DNA of 64,000 nucleotides from Escherichia phage vB_EcoM-Sa45lw, in the sequence record MK977694.1, one strand, 5' to 3'. This document shows, piece after piece, positions 14,787 to 63,066 of this stretch; position 1 is the stretch's first letter, and every line of letters starts with the position of its first letter. A program made the translations under genes and the position numbers. Under the pieces are notes generated by a model that worked only from the letters and a program-made list of their open reading frames with translations, was not told the DNA's origin and searched no databases.

Positions 14787-15751
14787 TGTATTCTTTAGAG
14801 GAATTTAATAATCAAGCAATAAACGCAGACTTCCAACGTAATAATATGTTCAGCTGTGTTTTTGCTACAACTCCATCAACTAAAAGCTCATCGTTAATAA
14901 GCTCAATTAGTAACTTTGCTTATAATAACTTGGGTCTAAATTCAGATTGGTTGGGATTAACTCAAGGTGATATTAATCAGGGAATTACCACGCTAATTAC
15001 CGCTGGCACACAAAAACTGATAAGAAAATCAGGGGTTAGTAAATATCTTATTGGTGCCATGAGTCAACGTACAGTTCAAAGTTTATTAGGCTCATTTACA
15101 GTTGGTACATATTTAATTGACTTCTTTAACATGGCATATAACTCATCTGGATTGATGATATATTCTGTAAAAATGCCAGAAAATAGATTATCCTATGAAA
15201 CTGACTGGAACTATAATTCTCCTAATATTCGTATAACTGGAAGAGAATTAGACCCTTTGGTTATTTCATTTAGAATGGATTCAGAAGCTTGTAACTATCG
15301 TGCAATGCAAGACTGGGTTAACGCCGTTCAAGACCCAGTAACTGGATTGCGTGCTTTACCGCAAGATGTCGAGGCAGATATTCAGGTCAATCTTCATTCT
15401 CGCAATGGATTACCACATACTGCGGTGATGTTCACTGGCTGTATTCCAATATCTGTGAGTGCTCCTGAGTTATCATATGATGGAGATAACCAAATAACTA
15501 CATTTGATGTTACTTTCGCTTATAGAGTCATGCAGGCTGGAGCAGTTGATAGACAAGCTGCCCTTGAATGGCTTGAATCTGCTACTATAAATGGTATTCA
15601 AAGCGTTCTCGGAAATAGTGGAGGTGTTACTGGACTATCTAATTCGCTTTCACGACTTAGTAGATTAGGGGGAACTGCAGGAAGCATTTCAAATATTAAT
15701 ACTATGACAGGAATTGTCAACTCGCAAAGTAAAATATTAGGAGCAATATAA
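14786..15751 (+). CDS. 54: Baseplate tail-tube initiator gp54
   Basis: 321 aa; T4 gp54 size and position. Confidence 0.9.
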   Translation: MYSLEEFNNQAINADFQRNNMFSCVFATTPSTKSSSLISSISNFAYNNLGLNSDWLGLTQGDINQGITTLITAGTQKLIRKSGVSKYLIGAMSQRTVQSLLGSFTVGTYLIDFFNMAYNSSGLMIYSVKMPENRLSYETDWNYNSPNIRITGRELDPLVISFRMDSEACNYRAMQDWVNAVQDPVTGLRALPQDVEADIQVNLHSRNGLPHTAVMFTGCIPISVSAPELSYDGDNQITTFDVTFAYRVMQAGAVDRQAALEWLESATINGIQSVLGNSGGVTGLSNSLSRLSRLGGTAGSISNINTMTGIVNSQSKILGAI

Positions 15752-15755
15752 CAAT

Positions 15756-15778
15756 GGGGACCGAAAGGTCCCCATGTT
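15756..15778. terminator. Bidirectional terminator between 54 and alt.-3
   Basis: GGGGACC-gaaa-GGTCCCC hairpin followed by T-run. Confidence 0.65.
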
Positions 15779-15779
15779 T

Positions 15780-16070
15780 TTATTTACGGAATGAAATAAA
15801 AGCAGCAACTGAAGCAACAGAGGTTTCTTCAATATAAACCTCAATTTTTACCGGAGCTTCTGACTCAAATTTACCTGTTACTACACCCTGAAAAATACTT
15901 TCAGTCTGTTCTGGCTTTGAAAAATTTTCAGAAGGAAAAATTCCAAACTTTTTATCGGTTCCGAAAATTTTAATAAATTCATCGTAAACTGCTTCATTAA
16001 AAGCATTATCAGCAGGAATAACGCCTTCAACTACAAGTTCTTGACCTAAAAAGCGCAAAGAAGATTTCAT
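15780..16070 (-). CDS. Hypothetical protein (alt.-3 position)
   Basis: 96 aa ORF; strong SD GAGGA and early promoter upstream. Confidence 0.6.
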   Translation of the reverse strand: MKSSLRFLGQELVVEGVIPADNAFNEAVYDEFIKIFGTDKKFGIFPSENFSKPEQTESIFQGVVTGKFESEAPVKIEVYIEETSVASVAAFISFRK

Positions 16071-16077
16071 TTTGTGT

Positions 16078-16131
16078 TCCTCATGTTATGTCAGTAAGAC
16101 TACTATAACACAACACGAGGGACTTGTAAAC
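16078..16131 (-). repeat. 54 bp promoter-leader repeat, copy 1
   Basis: Identical to 31872-31925. Confidence 0.9.
16102..16131 (-). promoter_or_regulatory. Early promoter (GTTTACA, 17 bp, TATAGT) upstream of alt.-3
   Basis: sigma70-like hexamers with TG-extended -10; part of a 54 bp block repeated at 31872-31925. Confidence 0.6.
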
Positions 16132-18188
16132 TACATTTTGAACTTTTTAGACATTCCGTTAATGTTAACCAAAGAAGCTAAGATTTGAGAAACTTCGTTT
16201 TCCTCTTCTTTTGATTCTTCTACAAGGAATTGATTAAATCCAGCCATTGGACGAACTTCACCAGTTTCCATTAGATGGTCGCCATCATATACTGATTCTT
16301 CTAATTGTTCAGAAGGAGGAACGATTGTACCTTCGATTAGATACTTGTTATAAGCAGTTTCTTTCATAAAGTAAGTACTTACTTTATTAATCTTCAGTAA
16401 AATTCCACGTGGTAGAATAACTTCAGCTTCTGATGGAAATCCTGATAAATGACCCGGAACGATAACTTTAACTCGTTCAGCTCCTTTAATTACCATACCC
16501 ACGCTAGTTTCAGCATCTTCATTAGCATATGTAGAATGACTACCCATATGCATCAAATCTTCTGCATCAACGGAACCTTCTCCTTCACCAGAAAATACTG
16601 CTCCGGAATCATCTAAGGCCATATAATTTTTACCATACTCACCAAAGATATTTGGTTTAAGTGATGTAGATACGAAGTTCTTGAAATAGAACATTTTATT
16701 TTCAATGTTATGACGCAAAGTTTTAAAAGTAACTTCTTGTCCACGGTAAAGTGTAGTTCCTGGAGGAAGAACTGAACCTTTAGCAAACGCAGAATCCATA
16801 GTCTCGATGTGCTTAATAGCGCGCTCCATGTATTCTTCACGTGTAGAATCAGGTTTACCTAAAAGGAATGAGTTCATTTCAACATACGAATCTGCACAAT
16901 AATCTTCAATTACATCAGATTCAGCCTGAGTCAATCCTTTTGGAGTTACTTCAGTGCTTGCATATTCATACGCCTGAGCAGCGGATTCATCAATTAATTT
17001 ATAAATGCCATTCATGACAAATTGAATAATAGCTGTCTTTTCATCTGGCGTAGCTTTAGAACCTTTAACTAAATCATTGACAATTTTCTTAATAACATCA
17101 AAGCTATTAGAAATATTAATGTCAGCAAGATCGCTTAAAATTTTATCAGTTTTATAATCAAAGAATTCTTTATTCTTTAAATATTCTTGAGAACCTTGAT
17201 ATGTTATATCGCTCTGCAGCTTGATAGATGGATCACGTAAACGTGCATGGGCTAATGCAATATGATTTCGGAAGCTTTCTAGTTCATAATCACTAGATTT
17301 AAAACGAGAAGCACTCCTCATACCACCGATAGCTCCTTTGCCGAAGTTTGAACCAATCTGAATAACGCCAGAGTTCATTGGTCCTTCTGCTTTATATACC
17401 GGAACTTTAGATTCAAACTCTTGATATTTCTTAGCAGCAAAGCTATCACCCTGAAGTGAAGCATCAACAGTAGAATATTGAGCTTGTGCTGCTAATCGAC
17501 GACTAATTTTAGTTTTCTGAATAACAGCTTGATCCGTACGCTTATCATTTTCTAAAGCAATAGAAGCAGCAACTGCGACAGCTTTAGGAACAGCATTACC
17601 TGTTTTAACGTCTACATAAACATCACCGACTTTCGATTCAACTTTTGTGAATAACTCAGTTGAAATAGGAGGTACACCTGGAATGTCTTCTAAATTGGCA
17701 TTTTTACGGTAAACCATAATATATGCATATTTCTTATCATAGTCCCAGATTTCCTTTAAAAGAACATATCGACCTGCTCCTTTAGTACGTACTAAACGGT
17801 CAGCAATAACTTGCATTTGACGAGCAGCGCCATTTGTTTTACTTTTTAGTACGCGGAATAGGCATGCATCAATTTTATACTGTTTCATTGTTTGAAGAGC
17901 AGTATCAAAAACCGCATTAATGACACCAATTGGATTTCCACCCAAGTTTTTAAGCTTAACTAACGATAATTTCTCATTAACACCTATCATTACGATATGC
18001 ATCATTTTGTCGCCTGGCTTAACGTTTTTATTCGTATCACCGCCAGAGGTGTATGTACAAAATCGAAATCCAGGAAGAACGCTTTCTTCACCGGCTTGAA
18101 TAGCAAAAATTTGAGGTATTTTATGCTTAGGATTTAAGTTAACAACCGGCGCCGAAGCGCCGTCAAATAATTCTGTAATAAGTTCCAT
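16131..18188 (-). CDS. Alt-like ADP-ribosyltransferase paralog (intact)
   Basis: 685 aa; N-terminus MELITELFD as in Alt; ART motifs YRGQ, FVSTSL, EVILPRG. Confidence 0.85.
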   Translation of the reverse strand: MELITELFDGASAPVVNLNPKHKIPQIFAIQAGEESVLPGFRFCTYTSGGDTNKNVKPGDKMMHIVMIGVNEKLSLVKLKNLGGNPIGVINAVFDTALQTMKQYKIDACLFRVLKSKTNGAARQMQVIADRLVRTKGAGRYVLLKEIWDYDKKYAYIMVYRKNANLEDIPGVPPISTELFTKVESKVGDVYVDVKTGNAVPKAVAVAASIALENDKRTDQAVIQKTKISRRLAAQAQYSTVDASLQGDSFAAKKYQEFESKVPVYKAEGPMNSGVIQIGSNFGKGAIGGMRSASRFKSSDYELESFRNHIALAHARLRDPSIKLQSDITYQGSQEYLKNKEFFDYKTDKILSDLADINISNSFDVIKKIVNDLVKGSKATPDEKTAIIQFVMNGIYKLIDESAAQAYEYASTEVTPKGLTQAESDVIEDYCADSYVEMNSFLLGKPDSTREEYMERAIKHIETMDSAFAKGSVLPPGTTLYRGQEVTFKTLRHNIENKMFYFKNFVSTSLKPNIFGEYGKNYMALDDSGAVFSGEGEGSVDAEDLMHMGSHSTYANEDAETSVGMVIKGAERVKVIVPGHLSGFPSEAEVILPRGILLKINKVSTYFMKETAYNKYLIEGTIVPPSEQLEESVYDGDHLMETGEVRPMAGFNQFLVEESKEEENEVSQILASLVNINGMSKKFKM

Positions 18189-18191
18189 GAT

Positions 18192-20285
18192 TTATCCTTG
18201 AACGAACTTGTAAGGCATGTTTGTAATATCTATGCAAGACGCAATAATTCCAAGAGATGATTCTACTTTCTGTTTAATATTTGATGAAACAAATGATGCA
18301 AAGTCAACTCTGTCTTCTATTTCAATATCACCTGTCATTGCAACCAATTCACCAGTTTCCATTAAATGGTCTCCATCATAGATTACCGATTCGGTGAGCT
18401 CTTCCGTGGTCATAACTTCAGCTTGAATGAGTTTTGTATTATTAGATGTTGTTCCGTCATTATTAGAAGCATCAGTTATTTTATTAACCTTGACCATCAA
18501 TCCGCGTGGTAGAATAACTTCAGCTTCTGTTGCTATTCCGAGACTTCCTGGATATACAACATTAACTTTATGAGCTCCATCAATTGCCCATCCTATTTGA
18601 ACTTTAACATATTCAGGATTTTCTTTATACGCTCTTATTTCGTTTGGATTAATAGTTATTCCTTCTTCATTTTTATCAACTGTTAATTCGTTACGAGCTT
18701 CTGGTTCTAAAAGACCAATACCAGCATGTGTGATTCCAAAACGTCCAAAAATGATAGGAGTTAAAGAAGTAGATACAAAATTTCTGAAGTAGAACACTTT
18801 ATTTTTAACTAACGCTTCATATATAGGAGCAGTCATACTTTGAGCACGATAAACTGTAATGCCTTCTGGTATACGGTCACCATTTTCAAAAGCTGAATCT
18901 AAGTTATTTATAGCAGATTCAATTTCTTTTTCACTCATTACATCGTATCGTTCTGGATTGTAACGACCTAAAAGAAGATTATTGATGTCAGTATATCCTG
19001 AACCGCAATATTCTCTAATGCCACGCTTTTGTGATGGAGTATATTTAGAACCATCGCGGGCAATAGTAATATCAATCATTGGACCAGCACCAATTCCAGA
19101 AAAACTGTAAATCATTCGTTTGAGGAATTTAGTTTTTGCTGCGTTCCAGGAATTTTTAGTTATTTCTTCCCAGACTTCATCTGGTTGTCCTTTACGATTT
19201 TTATTATGATTAGCAAGCCATTTATCTTTATAATCTTCAAAGAATTGATTTACAGCTGCTGCGTATTTCTCTAAACATTTTATTGAAGTAGTTGGTTCAT
19301 TTTTAATTGCATTAAAAATTACTTCTTTAATTTTTTCTGAAACTTCACCGACTTGACTCATTGGAAAGAATTTATAATCATAGTGAAGTTCATCTGCCGT
19401 TCCTTCAGCAATAATTTTTGCTGCCTTTGTTTTAGAAGCTAATGAATTAATTCCAATTTTCATTTCTTCTGCTTCGGGAATTAAAGGTGCAGTAGCTGGT
19501 TTATTAAAATTAGCTGCTGTAGATTCATACTTCTGGAATAATTCACTTTCAAATCTAGAAGATTCCAATGACTGACTTTGTGCAATTGCTCTACGGGAAA
19601 TTTTAACTTTAACGATTACGGCTTGGTCAGAACGTTTATCATTTTCTTGTGCAATAGATGCAGCAATTGCCTCATTTTTGGTTACTTGAGCTCCAGTATC
19701 TTTATTGATATAAACATCACCGACCTTCGATTCAACTTTAGTAAAAAGCTCGGTGCTAATTTCTGGAACTCCTGGAATGTCTTCTAGTGATACATTTTTA
19801 CGATGTATAAGAATATATGCATACTTTTTATCGTAATCCCAGAGTTCCTTAAGAAGGACGTATCTGCCACCTGAACGACTGCGGATGAGTCTATCAGCAA
19901 TAAGTTGAATTTGTCGAGCTTGACCGGCGGTTTTAGACTTAAGAATACGAAGCATGCAGGCATCAATTTTATATTGACGCATTGTTTGCATTGCAACAGT
20001 AAAAACTGAATTGATATAATTAATCGGGCTTGGACCAAGACCTTTTAATTTAGCAATTGAACCTTTAGCAGTTAATGTAAAAGGAACAATGTGCATCATT
20101 TTATCGCCCATCTTTAAATCACGATTAGTATCACCTCCAGATGTATAGGTACATAAACGAAAGCCTGGTTGTTCAATTGCATCATCAACATGAACTGAAA
20201 AAATTTGTGGTATTTTCTTCTTTGGATTTAAGTTTGTAATCGGAAGAGTAGTATCTTCGTCAAATAATTCTGTAATAAGTTCCAT
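18192..20285 (-). CDS. alt: Alt ADP-ribosyltransferase (capsid-packaged, modifies host RNA polymerase)
   Basis: 697 aa; MELITELFDEDTTLPITNL...; ART motifs YRAQ, FVSTSL, EVILPRG. Confidence 0.92.
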   Translation of the reverse strand: MELITELFDEDTTLPITNLNPKKKIPQIFSVHVDDAIEQPGFRLCTYTSGGDTNRDLKMGDKMMHIVPFTLTAKGSIAKLKGLGPSPINYINSVFTVAMQTMRQYKIDACMLRILKSKTAGQARQIQLIADRLIRSRSGGRYVLLKELWDYDKKYAYILIHRKNVSLEDIPGVPEISTELFTKVESKVGDVYINKDTGAQVTKNEAIAASIAQENDKRSDQAVIVKVKISRRAIAQSQSLESSRFESELFQKYESTAANFNKPATAPLIPEAEEMKIGINSLASKTKAAKIIAEGTADELHYDYKFFPMSQVGEVSEKIKEVIFNAIKNEPTTSIKCLEKYAAAVNQFFEDYKDKWLANHNKNRKGQPDEVWEEITKNSWNAAKTKFLKRMIYSFSGIGAGPMIDITIARDGSKYTPSQKRGIREYCGSGYTDINNLLLGRYNPERYDVMSEKEIESAINNLDSAFENGDRIPEGITVYRAQSMTAPIYEALVKNKVFYFRNFVSTSLTPIIFGRFGITHAGIGLLEPEARNELTVDKNEEGITINPNEIRAYKENPEYVKVQIGWAIDGAHKVNVVYPGSLGIATEAEVILPRGLMVKVNKITDASNNDGTTSNNTKLIQAEVMTTEELTESVIYDGDHLMETGELVAMTGDIEIEDRVDFASFVSSNIKQKVESSLGIIASCIDITNMPYKFVQG

Positions 20286-20308: not shown

Positions 20309-20316
20309 TATTTATA
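20309..20316 (-). promoter_or_regulatory. Late promoter (TATAAATA, - strand) for alt and the downstream alt paralog
   Basis: Plus TATTTATA, 24 bp upstream of the alt ATG. Confidence 0.6.
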
Positions 20317-24224: not shown

Positions 24225-24264
24225 AGTATTTTCCTCAGTAAGGGGCCGAAGCCCCTGTTTTATT

Positions 24265-24630
24265 TTAAATATCAAATTCGTTAAGAACTACATCAAAGAT
24301 TGCTTCAAGATGCTCAGGTTTAGCTCTGTTACTCAAAATATGACGAATCCAAGTTTTAACCAGAAGCTTACGATTAGCGCCATTCCAGCAAGGATGGGTC
24401 CCTAAATCGCGTTGACGAAAATCATCATCCAGAGCGATTTTGAAGTTTGAACCTTCCATTGTGATTGAAACCGTGATGCCATTTTCAAATCGCATATAAA
24501 CGTAGTTAGGAGTCATATACTGTTCAATTTCGCATACTGATCCATTTTGATGTTTCCAAAGGCAAATAGTATCAATAGAACCTGCAATACCATTAGAAAC
24601 ATATTTACGTTCAAAGTTGATGTAGTTCAT
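24265..24630 (-). CDS. Hypothetical protein
   Basis: 121 aa ORF, early promoter upstream. Confidence 0.55.
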   Translation of the reverse strand: MNYINFERKYVSNGIAGSIDTICLWKHQNGSVCEIEQYMTPNYVYMRFENGITVSITMEGSNFKIALDDDFRQRDLGTHPCWNGANRKLLVKTWIRHILSNRAKPEHLEAIFDVVLNEFDI

Positions 24631-24667: not shown

Positions 24668-24696
24668 ATAATATCATATCCTGTACCAAAGTAAAC
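24668..24696 (-). promoter_or_regulatory. Early promoter (GTTTAC, 17 bp, TATTAT)
   Basis: Hexamers on - strand; -10 embedded in the 8 bp inverted repeat GGTACAGG/CCTGTACC. Confidence 0.55.
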
Positions 24697-24698
24697 AA

Positions 24699-25031
24699 TT
24701 ATTTTACTACTTTCCAGTGCTTCATGTCAAGTTTACCAACTTTTTTCATCTTCTCAATCAAACGTTCGGCACGTTGGCGAGCTGTAACATAATACCATTC
24801 GCCTAATTCATTTTGTTCAATTTTTCCAACGATTACTGTATTCAATTCATAAATCCAACCAGTAAAGAAATTATGAACTTGAATTGTAAAGGTGAAATCT
24901 GTTCCCATACCTTCTGTTGTTTCTACTTCAATAATATCACCTTCAATTGCCATTAAGAACCACATAGTTTCATCATATTTACCATTGAAGCATTTAGTCT
25001 TAACTGCAGCGTTCAGATTAATCGTTTTCAT
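24699..25031 (-). CDS. Hypothetical protein
   Basis: 110 aa ORF. Confidence 0.55.
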   Translation of the reverse strand: MKTINLNAAVKTKCFNGKYDETMWFLMAIEGDIIEVETTEGMGTDFTFTIQVHNFFTGWIYELNTVIVGKIEQNELGEWYYVTARQRAERLIEKMKKVGKLDMKHWKVVK

Positions 25032-25058
25032 TTTATTCTCCTTTGTTTGTGTAAGATA

Positions 25059-25088
25059 ATACTATCACAAAGGAACCATACTGTAAAC
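25059..25088 (-). promoter_or_regulatory. Early promoter (GTTTACA, 17 bp, TAGTAT)
   Basis: Hexamers on - strand upstream of ORF 24699-25031. Confidence 0.5.
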
Positions 25089-28595: not shown

Positions 28596-28625
28596 ATAAT
28601 ATCACAACTCTACCGTAAAGTAAAC
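28596..28625 (-). promoter_or_regulatory. Early promoter (GTTTAC, 18 bp, TATTAT)
   Basis: -10 flanked by 7 bp inverted repeat GGTAGAG/CTCTACC. Confidence 0.5.
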
Positions 28626-31020: not shown

Positions 31021-31370
31021 TTAGAAAGGTCCTGGATGTCTTCTGCGAACTTGTTGAAGGAGTTGTTGATTTGTTTTTCAACCAATCCTGGCTTACGAGC
31101 CACCACATCCGCCTTCTTTGCATCTTTGCGCAGTTTTTCATTTTCACGCTCAATAGCAGCAATCGCCTCACGATTTTTATTATTCATCGCATCAATATAA
31201 TTATACTGAATTCGCAAATTATTTAATGCTAAGGCGTTTTCATTGGCCGTTTTTGTAATTTCTACAACAGACGTTTCTAATCTTTCAATTTTATTTTTTA
31301 AAATTAAAGAAGTTCCGCCTAATGCAATTACAATTAATAGCAAACCTGCTGTCGTATTACTTAATTGCAT
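31017..31370 (-). CDS. pseT.3: Inner-membrane spanin (Rz equivalent)
   Basis: 117 aa; N-terminal TM helix GLLLIVIALGGTSLIL then coiled-coil periplasmic region. Confidence 0.7.
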   Translation of the reverse strand: MQLSNTTAGLLLIVIALGGTSLILKNKIERLETSVVEITKTANENALALNNLRIQYNYIDAMNNKNREAIAAIERENEKLRKDAKKADVVARKPGLVEKQINNSFNKFAEDIQDLSK

Positions 31371-31867
31371 AAAGTTTTAATAACCTCTATAATATCGTCT
31401 TGAGAAAGACCGTTAATTAAAATATGATGTTCAGCTGGAGATTTAGAAATTTTAAAGCATGCCGCAACATCTTCTGCCATATCCGATGCGCTACGATTTG
31501 GATTACTAATTCCAAGACGATGTTTTCCCGTCAAAGGATTAACGATGATATAGCATTTACAGTTGTTGATATGAACATTAGGTTGAGTCTGATTAATAAA
31601 CACTTCACAATCATACTTAGCGAGTTGATTTTCTAAAAAGACTTTCATCTCCTCAACCGCATTAGGAAGCATATCACGGGCTTGCTCAAGACGACGATTT
31701 CGATATTCTTTAATGGTCGTTTTCCGCTTGACTTGCTTAGCTAAATCTTTCTTAAGATCAGTGATATATCCAACTCGACGATTTCCTTTGAATACAGAAA
31801 TCCCATCTGTAGTATCACCGTATGCTTCAGCGACCATTTCAGTAGTAATAAGCTGCAAATCCATCAT
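31361..31867 (-). CDS. alc: Alc, inhibitor of host transcription on cytosine-containing DNA
   Basis: 168 aa at the T4 alc position between pseT.3 and rnlA. Confidence 0.8.
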   Translation of the reverse strand: MMDLQLITTEMVAEAYGDTTDGISVFKGNRRVGYITDLKKDLAKQVKRKTTIKEYRNRRLEQARDMLPNAVEEMKVFLENQLAKYDCEVFINQTQPNVHINNCKCYIIVNPLTGKHRLGISNPNRSASDMAEDVAACFKISKSPAEHHILINGLSQDDIIEVIKTLCN

Positions 31868-31871
31868 AAAG

Positions 31872-31925
31872 TCCTCATGTTATGTCAGTAAGACTACTAT
31901 AACACAACACGAGGGACTTGTAAAC
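31872..31925 (-). repeat. 54 bp promoter-leader repeat, copy 2
   Basis: Identical to 16078-16131. Confidence 0.9.
31896..31925 (-). promoter_or_regulatory. Early promoter (GTTTACA, 17 bp, TATAGT) upstream of alc
   Basis: Part of 54 bp block identical to 16078-16131. Confidence 0.6.
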
Positions 31926-31928
31926 AGC

Positions 31929-33516
<1,588 letters not shown>

Positions 33517-40599: not shown

Positions 40600-40629
40600 A
40601 TAGTATCACACTACTACCCCGTTGTAAAC
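40600..40629 (-). promoter_or_regulatory. Early promoter (GTTTACA, 17 bp, TACTAT)
   Basis: Hexamers on - strand; followed by GGAG and a 22-codon hydrophobic mini-ORF. Confidence 0.45.
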
Positions 40630-41558: not shown

Positions 41559-41601
41559 ATTATTTTCCTCTTTAATCATCAGCAGTATTGCCGATAGTTG
41601 T

Positions 41602-41631
41602 ATAGTACCATAAAGCCTTATGTTTGTAAAC
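41602..41631 (-). promoter_or_regulatory. Early promoter (GTTTACA, 17 bp, TACTAT) immediately downstream of the gene 32 terminator
   Basis: Near-identical to the cassette at 58309-58338. Confidence 0.55.
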
Positions 41632-41652
41632 CGTTTTGTGAAAAAATTTTTG

Positions 41653-41681
41653 AAATAAAAAAGGGGACCTCTAGGGTCCCC
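41653..41681 (-). terminator. Gene 32 terminator
   Basis: GGGGACC-ctaga-GGTCCCC followed by TTTTTTATTT on - strand. Confidence 0.8.
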
Positions 41682-58267: not shown

Positions 58268-58308
58268 TTTCTAATCTCCGTAATTCTGTATCAGTAGTTG
58301 ATAGTTGT

Positions 58309-58338
58309 ATAGTACCACAGTATGCTTTGGTTGTAAAC
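58309..58338 (-). promoter_or_regulatory. Early promoter (GTTTACA, 17 bp, TACTAT) for motA
   Basis: Shares a ~40 bp near-identical upstream block with the cassette at 41602-41665. Confidence 0.55.
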
Positions 58339-58370
58339 CGGTTTGTGAAAAAAATTTTTGAAATAAAAAA

Positions 58371-58390
58371 GGGAGAGCCTCGGCTCTCCC
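58371..58390 (-). terminator. Rho-independent terminator
   Basis: GGGAGAGC-cgag-GCTCTCCC followed by TTTTTTATTT on - strand. Confidence 0.75.
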
Positions 58391-61414: not shown

Positions 61415-61442
61415 TTTCTGTTCCTCCGTAGTTGATAGTTGT

Positions 61443-61472
61443 ATAATACCACAGAGGAACAGTCTTGTAAAC
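61443..61472 (-). promoter_or_regulatory. Early promoter (GTTTACA, 17 bp, TATTAT)
   Basis: Same architecture and flanking ACAACTATCAAC as the other cassettes. Confidence 0.5.
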
Positions 61473-61896: not shown

Positions 61897-61930
61897 TTTA
61901 TTCTCCAAATCCGTATCAGTTGATAGTTGT

Positions 61931-61960
61931 ATATTACCACAGTCCTTGTGGTATGTAAAC
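61931..61960 (-). promoter_or_regulatory. Early promoter (GTTTACA, 17 bp, TAATAT)
   Basis: Hexamers on - strand. Confidence 0.5.
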
Positions 61961-61976
61961 CGTTTTGTGAAAATTT

Positions 61977-62534
61977 TTAAATGGAAAGATACCATCCGTT
62001 GTAGTTGCTTTTTCTTACAACCTTACGAAGGTCTTCTCTGTCACCGATGAACTTCGGAGTGTACTGGATGACACCTGGATGAATTTCTTTAGTGTTGAAT
62101 ATAATTATACAGTCAGCGACTTGATGATTTAGAATAGGCCCTAGATTTATTCCAGAACCATATGGATACTCTCCGCTGCATCCCGTTGTTACCGAAATCC
62201 AACGCGAGTCAGTTTGATGTGTCTTAACTTCTACACGAAGCCCGCAGTATCTTGGATGCGCCAATACATCCCATGCGTATGTATACGGGTCATTAACGTC
62301 CTCTTGGCCTTTGTTAACATACCCGCTTAGCCAATCTGCTACAAAAAACTCTGCGTACACCGCGATACGGCATCTTTCGATAACTTCTGCTTTATCCTGG
62401 TTCGGGTTTTGTTTTAAAGAGTATCTTGCTGTATCAGCAATTTTGACCTTCATTTCACTAGTCAAATCACTGTTCGATAGGGTAAATGTCGGAATCTGAA
62501 ATAGTCTCTGTAAACCCGGATTCGTTTTCTGCAT
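61977..62534 (-). CDS. denB: Endonuclease IV
   Basis: 185 aa, T4 DenB length and position. Confidence 0.9.
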   Translation of the reverse strand: MQKTNPGLQRLFQIPTFTLSNSDLTSEMKVKIADTARYSLKQNPNQDKAEVIERCRIAVYAEFFVADWLSGYVNKGQEDVNDPYTYAWDVLAHPRYCGLRVEVKTHQTDSRWISVTTGCSGEYPYGSGINLGPILNHQVADCIIIFNTKEIHPGVIQYTPKFIGDREDLRKVVRKSNYNGWYLSI

Positions 62535-62813: not shown

Positions 62814-62843
62814 AAGGGCCGAAGCCCTTATTTAAATTGTTCA
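62814..62843 (-). repeat. 30 bp repeat (last codons EQFK + stop + terminator hairpin), copy 1
   Basis: Identical to 63037-63066. Confidence 0.9.
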
Positions 62844-63036: not shown

Positions 63037-63066
63037 AAGGGCCGAAGCCCTTATTTAAATTGTTCA
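63037..63066 (-). repeat. 30 bp repeat, copy 2 (3' end of rIIB + terminator)
   Basis: Identical to 62814-62843. Confidence 0.9.

Follow-up and report, generated by a model that had tools for sequence, protein, structure and literature searches.

Why should two unrelated genes of a T4-type phage, 15.8 kb apart and with essential genes between them, be preceded by exactly the same 54 bp? In the 64,000-nt stretch of Escherichia phage vB_EcoM-Sa45lw analysed here (MK977694.1; hereafter the window), which is Tequatrovirus DNA, positions 16078–16131 and 31872–31925 are identical throughout, as the original prediction stated, and the identity ends with a mismatch on either side (T at 16077 against G at 31871; T at 16132 against A at 31926). 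An exact repeat of this length within 64 kb is not of chance origin. The two genes served by it are indeed unrelated, Pfam placing Alt.-3 in DUF5498 and Alc in PF17527, and the promoter, leader and Shine–Dalgarno (SD) sequence of both copies are read on the minus strand (GTTTACAAGTCCCTCGTGTTGTGTTATAGTAGTCTTACTGACATAACATGAGGA). Within the window the pattern GTTTACA-N17-TATAGT is found at two sites, which are the two copies (0 of 100 shuffles), and a search of both strands for a third copy of the 54-mer with up to eight mismatches returned none.

Each copy carries a sigma-70 early promoter (TTTACA, 17 nt, TGn-TATAGT) that agrees with the consensus at 10 of 12 positions in a consensus scan and is followed by a leader and the SD sequence GAGGA. 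This is the layout that had been read from the sequence beforehand, with two refinements. The −35 element, given earlier as GTTTACA, holds as the hexamer TTTACA, the preceding G being, at copy 1, the base that closes the TAG codon terminating the alt-like ORF; and the block, described as ending just before the start codons, leaves 7 nt to the ATG of alt.-3 and, at alc, 4 nt to the first ATG and 7 nt to the second (the start annotated in T4). The rnlA stop codon TAA lies 3 nt upstream of copy 2, and the 54-mer fills intergenic gaps of 60 nt (alt.-3) and 61–64 nt (alc). The sequence upstream of the cassettes is the 3′ end of a coding region, AT-rich at alt.-3 (ctaaaaagttcaaaatgta) and less AT-rich at alc. 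T4 early promoters are characterized by a GTTTAC −35 region and a TGn-extended −10, together with extra conserved positions of unknown meaning (Hinton, 2010; PMC2988021). The cassette has the GTTTAC region, the TGn and a −10 hexamer in common with that class, but differs from it in having coding sequence, with no dedicated UP element, upstream of the −35, and in the hexamer itself (TATAGT). Taking the seventh nucleotide after the −10 as the start site, from the −10 alone, transcription would begin at 16095 and 31889, in both cases at an A; the corresponding T4 positions are 123057 and 136300. We consider it plausible that transcription and translation are initiated in the same way at alc and at alt.-3.

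According to a T4 omics time-course, alt.-3 (a non-essential, uncharacterized gene) and alc are early at both the RNA and the protein level; among their neighbours, alt is classed as late and alt.-1 and alt.-2 as middle, and the RNA of rnlA is early and its protein late. Late-promoter motifs (TATAAATA) occur on the minus strand at 20309–20316 and 18905–18912, upstream of the alt genes, and none lies inside the cassette; nor did the consensus scan place a terminator-like site between either upstream gene (alt-like or rnlA) and the cassette that follows it. We found no genome-wide map of T4 start sites in the literature. RegB targeting was rejected, the SD GAGGA having no GGAG. A small ORF that begins at the ATG within CATGAGGA lacks a separate SD. 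In phage AnYang (MK234886.1) this ATG, which sits in ATGAGGAG and hence within the SD, is annotated as the start of alc; the start homologous to that of other phages is 12 nt downstream, and the annotated one is probably an annotation slip. The positions of all elements are collected in Table 1.

Table 1. Elements of the two cassettes and neighbouring genes, with positions in the window
Feature	Position	Strand	Basis
Cassette copy 1, alt.-3 site: early promoter, hairpin and SD	16078..16131	-	Exact repeat
Cassette copy 2, alc site; putative original site	31872..31925	-	Exact repeat, cross-genus comparison
−35 TTTACA, copy 1 (preceding G at 16131)	16125..16130	-	Consensus scan
−10 TATAGT, copy 1 (TGn at 16108-16110)	16102..16107	-	Consensus scan
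−35 TTTACA, copy 2	31919..31924	-	Consensus scan
−10 TATAGT, copy 2 (TGn at 31902-31904)	31896..31901	-	Consensus scan
Hairpin 5′ arm, copy 1: spacer with anti-SD CCCTC, plus −10	16101..16120	-	RNA fold
Hairpin 3′ arm, copy 1: leader and SD (GAGGA at 16078-16082)	16079..16096	-	RNA fold
Hairpin 5′ arm, copy 2	31895..31914	-	RNA fold
Hairpin 3′ arm, copy 2 (GAGGA at 31872-31876)	31873..31890	-	RNA fold
alt.-3, 96 aa, DUF5498; served by copy 1	15780..16070	-	Pfam, T4 annotation
alc, 167 aa from second ATG (T4 annotation); served by copy 2	31361..31864	-	
Additional in-frame ATG of alc	31865-31867	-	
alt-like ADP-ribosyltransferase paralogue; transcription through it would enter copy 1	16131..18188	-	
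rnlA (gene 63); transcription through it would enter copy 2	31929..33089	-	
Bidirectional terminator-like hairpin in the gene 54/alt.-3 gap; first such site downstream of copy 1	15754..15775	.	

The pair of cassettes is a feature of the genus. Matches to the 54-mer were found in 499 GenBank phage records, T4 included, at 997 places, with two copies per genome (one partial record excepted) and never three, and the best copy is identical to that of the window in 257 records. The 54-mer is accordingly not a sequence that stands before most early promoters, and the further copies that the original prediction had proposed to look for end at this one pair per genome. In T4 (NC_000866) the copies lie at 123040–123093 (one change, G to A) and 136283–136336 (unchanged). 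These two T4 cassettes agree at 53 of 54 positions, against a median of 25 of 54 over 780 pairs of early-promoter cassettes, and other early promoters have only the −35 and −10 motifs in common with the 54-mer; together with the finding of another cassette at alt.-3 in five other genera (see below), this upholds the earlier claim of a copied regulatory cassette as opposed to convergence on a promoter consensus. About 100 GenBank Tequatrovirus genomes have the T4 arrangement, in which homology to the window resumes 19 bp upstream of copy 1. The window itself has two tandem alt-like ADP-ribosyltransferase genes (16240–17770 compared with 18331–19864, with repeats spaced about 2094 bp apart), and T4 has only remnants of the second alt-like gene (alt.-1 and alt.-2). 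The region around alt.-3 (15500–16700) matches Shigella phage Sf23 and Escherichia phage NiC89 at 100% identity, and that around alc (31300–32500) reaches at best 99.0%, with vB_EcoM_ASO78A; these different nearest relatives suggest a recombinant mosaic genome across the 15.8-kb interval. The search for related loci covered five close relatives per gene, and degenerate-pattern scans of contigs from IMG/VR and metagenomes yielded few of T4-like type and many chance matches.

Perfect identity of the copies is confined to some genomes, while the pair itself is genus-wide. Across 15 genomes, the last five of which were picked as divergent, the copies differ from one another at 0, 1, 0, 4, 3, 1, 1, 2, 2, 3, 4, 5, 0, 5 and 0 positions. 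About 50 bp of homology suffices for recombination in T4, and ongoing gene conversion between the copies could in principle keep them alike with no function required. The same two changes (28A and 31A) are present in both copies of PP01 and of UFV10, and 15A and 26C in both copies of vB_ECOLIGBLB0003, which hints that the copies may exchange sequence occasionally. However, variants are mostly private to one copy, and sites 15, 26, 28 and 31 vary independently in other genomes; since, moreover, 28G>A creates the consensus TATAAT, the shared changes may be parallel mutations. The window sequence is the consensus of all copies, so that plain retention of the ancestral state explains the identity seen in it. 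We therefore reject concerted evolution as the main cause on account of the private variants, allow it as a minor contributor at most, and regard a conversion-based explanation of the repeat as somewhat unlikely.

A better reason for identity that extends through the non-consensus parts of the block is offered by the 54-mer itself, which as RNA is predicted to form a hairpin pairing the promoter spacer with the SD. This hairpin has 18 bp (−22 kcal/mol, z −5.4; 0 of 200 shuffles equally stable), 14 of them formed between CCUCGUGUUGUGUU and GACAUAACAUGAGG and four lying further in. Its 5′ arm consists of the promoter spacer and the −10 and its 3′ arm of the leader and the SD; the presence of the anti-SD arm makes the spacer unusually rich in G+C. 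By the geometry of the sequence, the −10 falls within the 5′ arm and the predicted +1 within the 3′ arm. Leaders taken from the base after the −10, which begin a few nucleotides upstream of the predicted start site, are no more stable than their shuffles (z 0.0 and −0.5). Opening the segment from the SD to the AUG is predicted to cost 12.1 and 13.3 kcal/mol in read-through RNA compared with 3.7 and 4.1 kcal/mol when the RNA begins at the predicted start, although in the alt.-3 RNA from that start the SD is also predicted to pair weakly with codons 3–5.

The repeat is an ordinary genus-wide feature that fits a published class, the PeSL (promoter-early stem-loop) cassettes of T4-like phages. A PeSL cassette is described as reaching from a stop codon to the next ATG and as made up of an early promoter, a stem-loop that lies over the promoter boxes or between them, and a 3′-terminal SD; its repeated copies are considered to be swapped by recombination, T4 and PST are covered, and the PST/T4 early-promoter consensus is given as TTTACW-N17-TAYWAT (Arbiol et al., 2010, PMC2839356; Comeau et al., 2014, PMC4122927). 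The cassette studied here resembles this class in its promoter (TTTACA-N17-TATAGT with TGn, the one departure being the G at the fifth position of the −10), in having a stable stem-loop within the promoter, in filling the intergenic gap from the stop codon to the SD, and in having been replaced among genera at alt.-3, presumably by recombination. It also differs from the class. PeSL stem-loops are read as terminators or attenuators and the PST/T4 ones are described as lying just upstream of the promoter, whereas the present stem extends over the spacer, the −10 and the leader; the SD itself forms its 3′ arm; and the copies are 15.8 kb apart across essential genes and not around a swappable ORFan. 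The minus-strand reading, the hairpin, the occurrence of the pair throughout the genus including T4, and the likeness to a published kind of cassette were not part of the original prediction; the spacer–SD hairpin, its covariation at alc, the direction of copying and the model of early-only translation are additions of the present analysis.

The hairpin is conserved at alc in other genera. We compared the junction upstream of alc in 14 phages from 12 further genera; in one of these, Acinetobacter phage 133, the gene that precedes alc is pseT.2. In nine of the genera (Dhakavirus, Gelderlandvirus, Moonvirus, Karamvirus, Winklervirus, Bragavirus, Marfavirus, Gualtarvirus and that of Klebsiella phage K65) a GTTTAC promoter directly follows the rnlA stop codon and its spacer is complementary to the alc SD, with the qualification that in Gualtarvirus the complementary segment is the −10 and discriminator, not the spacer. 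The hairpins of these nine genera have minimum free energies of −13 to −26 kcal/mol (z −2.5 to −7.8) and stems whose sequences vary by genus (UCUCCGUUUAGUU/AACUAAACGGAGA, UCUCCAUUUGGUU/AACCAAAUGGAGA and UCCUCAUUUCGUU/AACGAAAUGAGGA). When a nine-genus MAFFT alignment was submitted to RNAalifold no structure was returned, because the right arms were out of register, and we replaced it by folding per genus and by a gap-free MAFFT alignment of four genera. In the latter all 13 pairs are kept and the four pairs that vary do so in a compensatory manner (4/4), giving a covariation score reached by 1 of 500 shuffles. Tequatrovirus taken by itself varies too little for a significant result (107 of 500 shuffles reach the score): one pair is compensatory (C–G to U–A via U–G), and at four others just one side changes and no sequence loses the pairing. 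Natural variants that break a pair are 11C>A, 15G>T, 28G>A and 39G>T. The three phages of Mosigvirus have the alc promoter and no hairpin pairing with the SD, so that masking is dispensable in at least one genus.

This covariation also bears on whether the repeat is a neutral relic, that is, a recent duplication yet to diverge in which the hairpin is incidental. The cassette does diverge at about the rate of its neighbours (some 2–3% from the consensus compared with 2–4% in the flanks), as such a relic would. Yet the alc hairpin is kept with compensatory changes in genera whose Alc proteins are only 44–60% identical, and we find this explanation hardly credible. A function of the inverted repeat at the DNA level, as an operator for a host or phage protein or as a cruciform that tunes or shuts off both early promoters jointly, seems to us very unlikely on similar grounds. 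It would suit a long imperfect palindrome whose centre is the −10 and start-site region, serving two genes of the same early class in a phage whose mechanism of early-promoter shut-off is not fully explained. However, the G–T and T–G positions of the stem pair as RNA wobbles and not as a DNA palindrome, natural variants shift between G–U, A–U and G–C, no candidate protein is known, and a stem sequence that is free to change across genera while its pairing is kept is unlike a protein-binding site.

Considering that PeSL stem-loops have been proposed to act as terminators or attenuators, and that one RB49 stem-loop is reported to have cut lacZ expression about as much as a strong terminator, the hairpin might instead act on the upstream transcript, terminating or attenuating alt or rnlA or stabilizing a 3′ end, with the promoter restarting transcription. 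The alt.-3 hairpin of SA20RB has been annotated automatically as a rho-independent terminator, and in Acinetobacter phage 133 a hairpin containing the alc SD (AGTCCTCA...TGAGGACT) is followed by TTTTTT and so looks like an intrinsic terminator as well. Against this, no U-run comes after either copy in the window (ACACAAAAUG, CUUUAUGAUG), the consensus scan reports a terminator at neither site, and in the other nine genera the stem ends at the SD and is succeeded by A-rich, not U-rich, sequence. In every genus, moreover, the SD marks the exact end of the 3′ arm and an anti-SD sits in the 5′ arm, a precision that neither a terminator nor a stabilizer needs. We reject an intrinsic terminator at both copies, which lack the hairpin-plus-U-run signature, and consider an action on the upstream transcript unlikely in general.

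We argue for masking of the SD. RNA made from the internal promoter would begin inside the hairpin, at 16095 or 31889, and being devoid of the 5′ arm it would, we propose, leave the ribosome-binding site open, as the folding predictions have it. Read-through RNA from the late alt genes or from rnlA would carry both arms and bury the ribosome-binding site. With such RNA masked, we propose that translation of the downstream gene would depend almost entirely on its own early promoter and fall in the first minutes after infection. Precedents in T4 are e, soc, 49 and I-TevI, in which RNA from an internal late promoter evades a helix that masks the SD (Uzan and Miller, 2010; PMC3014915). In these genes and in mobE of phage Aeh1, long upstream transcripts bury the SD or the AUG, which is what folding predicts here; likewise the promoter lies inside the helix and the short RNA is without the 5′ arm (here from sequence geometry). 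In contrast, their internal promoter is late (gp55) and translation is late only, whereas the promoter of the present cassette is an early sigma-70 promoter and its anti-SD is the promoter's own spacer. The logic would thus be early-only, and since the internal promoter is early and not late, the cassettes are a variant of that family and not strict members of it. The reviews examined, that of Uzan and Miller included, make no mention of alc or alt.-3 in an SD-masking context.

If the hairpin is ancient at alc, is it equally so at alt.-3? At the alt/alt.-3 junction, Dhakavirus, Mosigvirus, Moonvirus, Kanagawavirus and Klebsiella phage kv_tblp5 have a different early-promoter cassette (for example GTTTACAACACCACAAGGATGTGGTACTAT...ACATGAGGAG), with a short spacer hairpin only, no anti-SD and nothing that pairs with the SD. 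That alc has a cassette of the hairpin type and these five genera a different one at alt.-3 implies a replacement at alt.-3; and since the design is found at alc in nine other genera and, outside Tequatrovirus, is missing at alt.-3, we take alc to be the most likely native site of the cassette. By parsimony of hairpin architecture, the hairpin cassette was most likely copied from alc to alt.-3 in the Tequatrovirus ancestor. Such copying into the alt/alt.-3 junction would have displaced the resident promoter cassette, and its junctions would lie in motifs common to both cassettes, GTTTACAA (−35) on the left and ACATGAGGA (SD) on the right. The flanks of the Tequatrovirus alt.-3 copy match the Dhakavirus alt.-3 site, on the left at TTCAAAATGTAGTTTACAA and on the right at ACATGAGGA..ATGAAATCT. 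Sequence identity does not discriminate between donors, the 54-mer agreeing with the Dhakavirus alc cassette at 42 of 55 positions and with its alt.-3 cassette at 41 of 56. Our overall reading, which we hold to be probable without regarding it as secure, is that the repeat comprises two cassettes of the PeSL kind, each with an SD-masking hairpin around an internal early promoter, of which the alt.-3 one was copied from alc.

The design is met with elsewhere in the window. On the minus strand at 61418–61472, upstream of an ORF for a small membrane protein (MKKIVKAIW...), the spacer CTGTTCCTCTGTGGT forms a stem with the SD-containing ACTACGGAGGAACAG (−23 kcal/mol, z −5.7), and at 25035–25088, on the same strand and upstream of the gene 30.8 homologue (24699–25031), the spacer TTCCTTTGTG is complementary to CACAAACAAAGGAG with its SD. 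The 30.8 hairpin is unchanged in six Tequatrovirus genomes, and the 30.8 spacer of Mosigvirus PhAPEC2, though different (TCTCC), is likewise complementary to the SD there. Inverted repeats at 28596–28625, 24668–24696 and 40600–40629 (minus strand) bracket the −10 only (e.g. GGTAGAG...CTCTACC), and look like a second class of promoter-spanning hairpin, one that does not reach the SD.

In an exploratory survey of T4 (NC_000866) covering 37 compact GTTTAC cassettes, 12 are predicted to pair the SD with sequence preceding the start site at a probability of at least 0.8, where shuffles lead one to expect 6.6, and eight mask the SD more than their shuffles do (p<=0.05); regB (62797), denV (65413), 30.8 (130310) and alc (136336) are among these eight. 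In several further cassettes the pairing falls below that of the shuffles, so that the distribution has a bimodal look, and the genome-wide mean masking score is not significantly raised (0.533 against 0.457, a value reached by 7 of 100 shuffles). We suggest, tentatively and somewhat short of believing it, that in a subset of T4-type early promoters the spacer doubles as an anti-Shine–Dalgarno sequence, the cassettes being self-insulating and an early mirror image of e, soc, 49 and I-TevI. Pairs of T4 cassettes have exact blocks of 58, 43 and 40 nt in common (55384 and 146875; 27080 and 167086; 27080 and 70696), and mosaic cassettes of this kind, common in T4, are consistent with cassette shuffling and are a further likeness to the PeSL class.

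Other repeats of the window may be recorded here. Three 75-nt blocks that are 65–79% alike (41593–41667, 58300–58374 and 61922–61996) each combine an early promoter with an A/T-rich upstream region (AAAATTTTTTCACAAAAC), and in T4 the same upstream block is exactly common to two distant promoters. A 30-bp perfect direct repeat, AAGGGCCGAAGCCCTTATTTAAATTGTTCA, is found at 62814–62843 and 63037–63066 with a G+C-rich terminator-like hairpin, and a related copy at 24228–24265. By T4 gene order the window presumably spans the nrdB–td region, in which T4 carries group I introns; no Rfam 15 family reaches its gathering score anywhere in the 64 kb, and hence none for a group I intron.

Finally, were this reading true, it would explain how the synthesis of Alc and Alt.-3 is confined to the first minutes of infection despite apparent late read-through from alt and rnlA, and the 54-bp repeat would be a clean natural example of a regulatory cassette moved from gene to gene with its junctions in the shared promoter and SD motifs. 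If the spacer does act as an anti-Shine–Dalgarno sequence, part of the unexplained extra conservation in T4 early promoters would acquire a function, the genes concerned would be silent on middle or late read-through RNA, alc would have the most ancient and best-conserved cassette of this design, and the repeat would be the trace of its transfer to another gene. Should the design hold, it would provide a compact insulating part for phage engineering and, if it holds for the 8–12 of 37 early promoters predicted in T4, it would amount to a general layer of temporal control.
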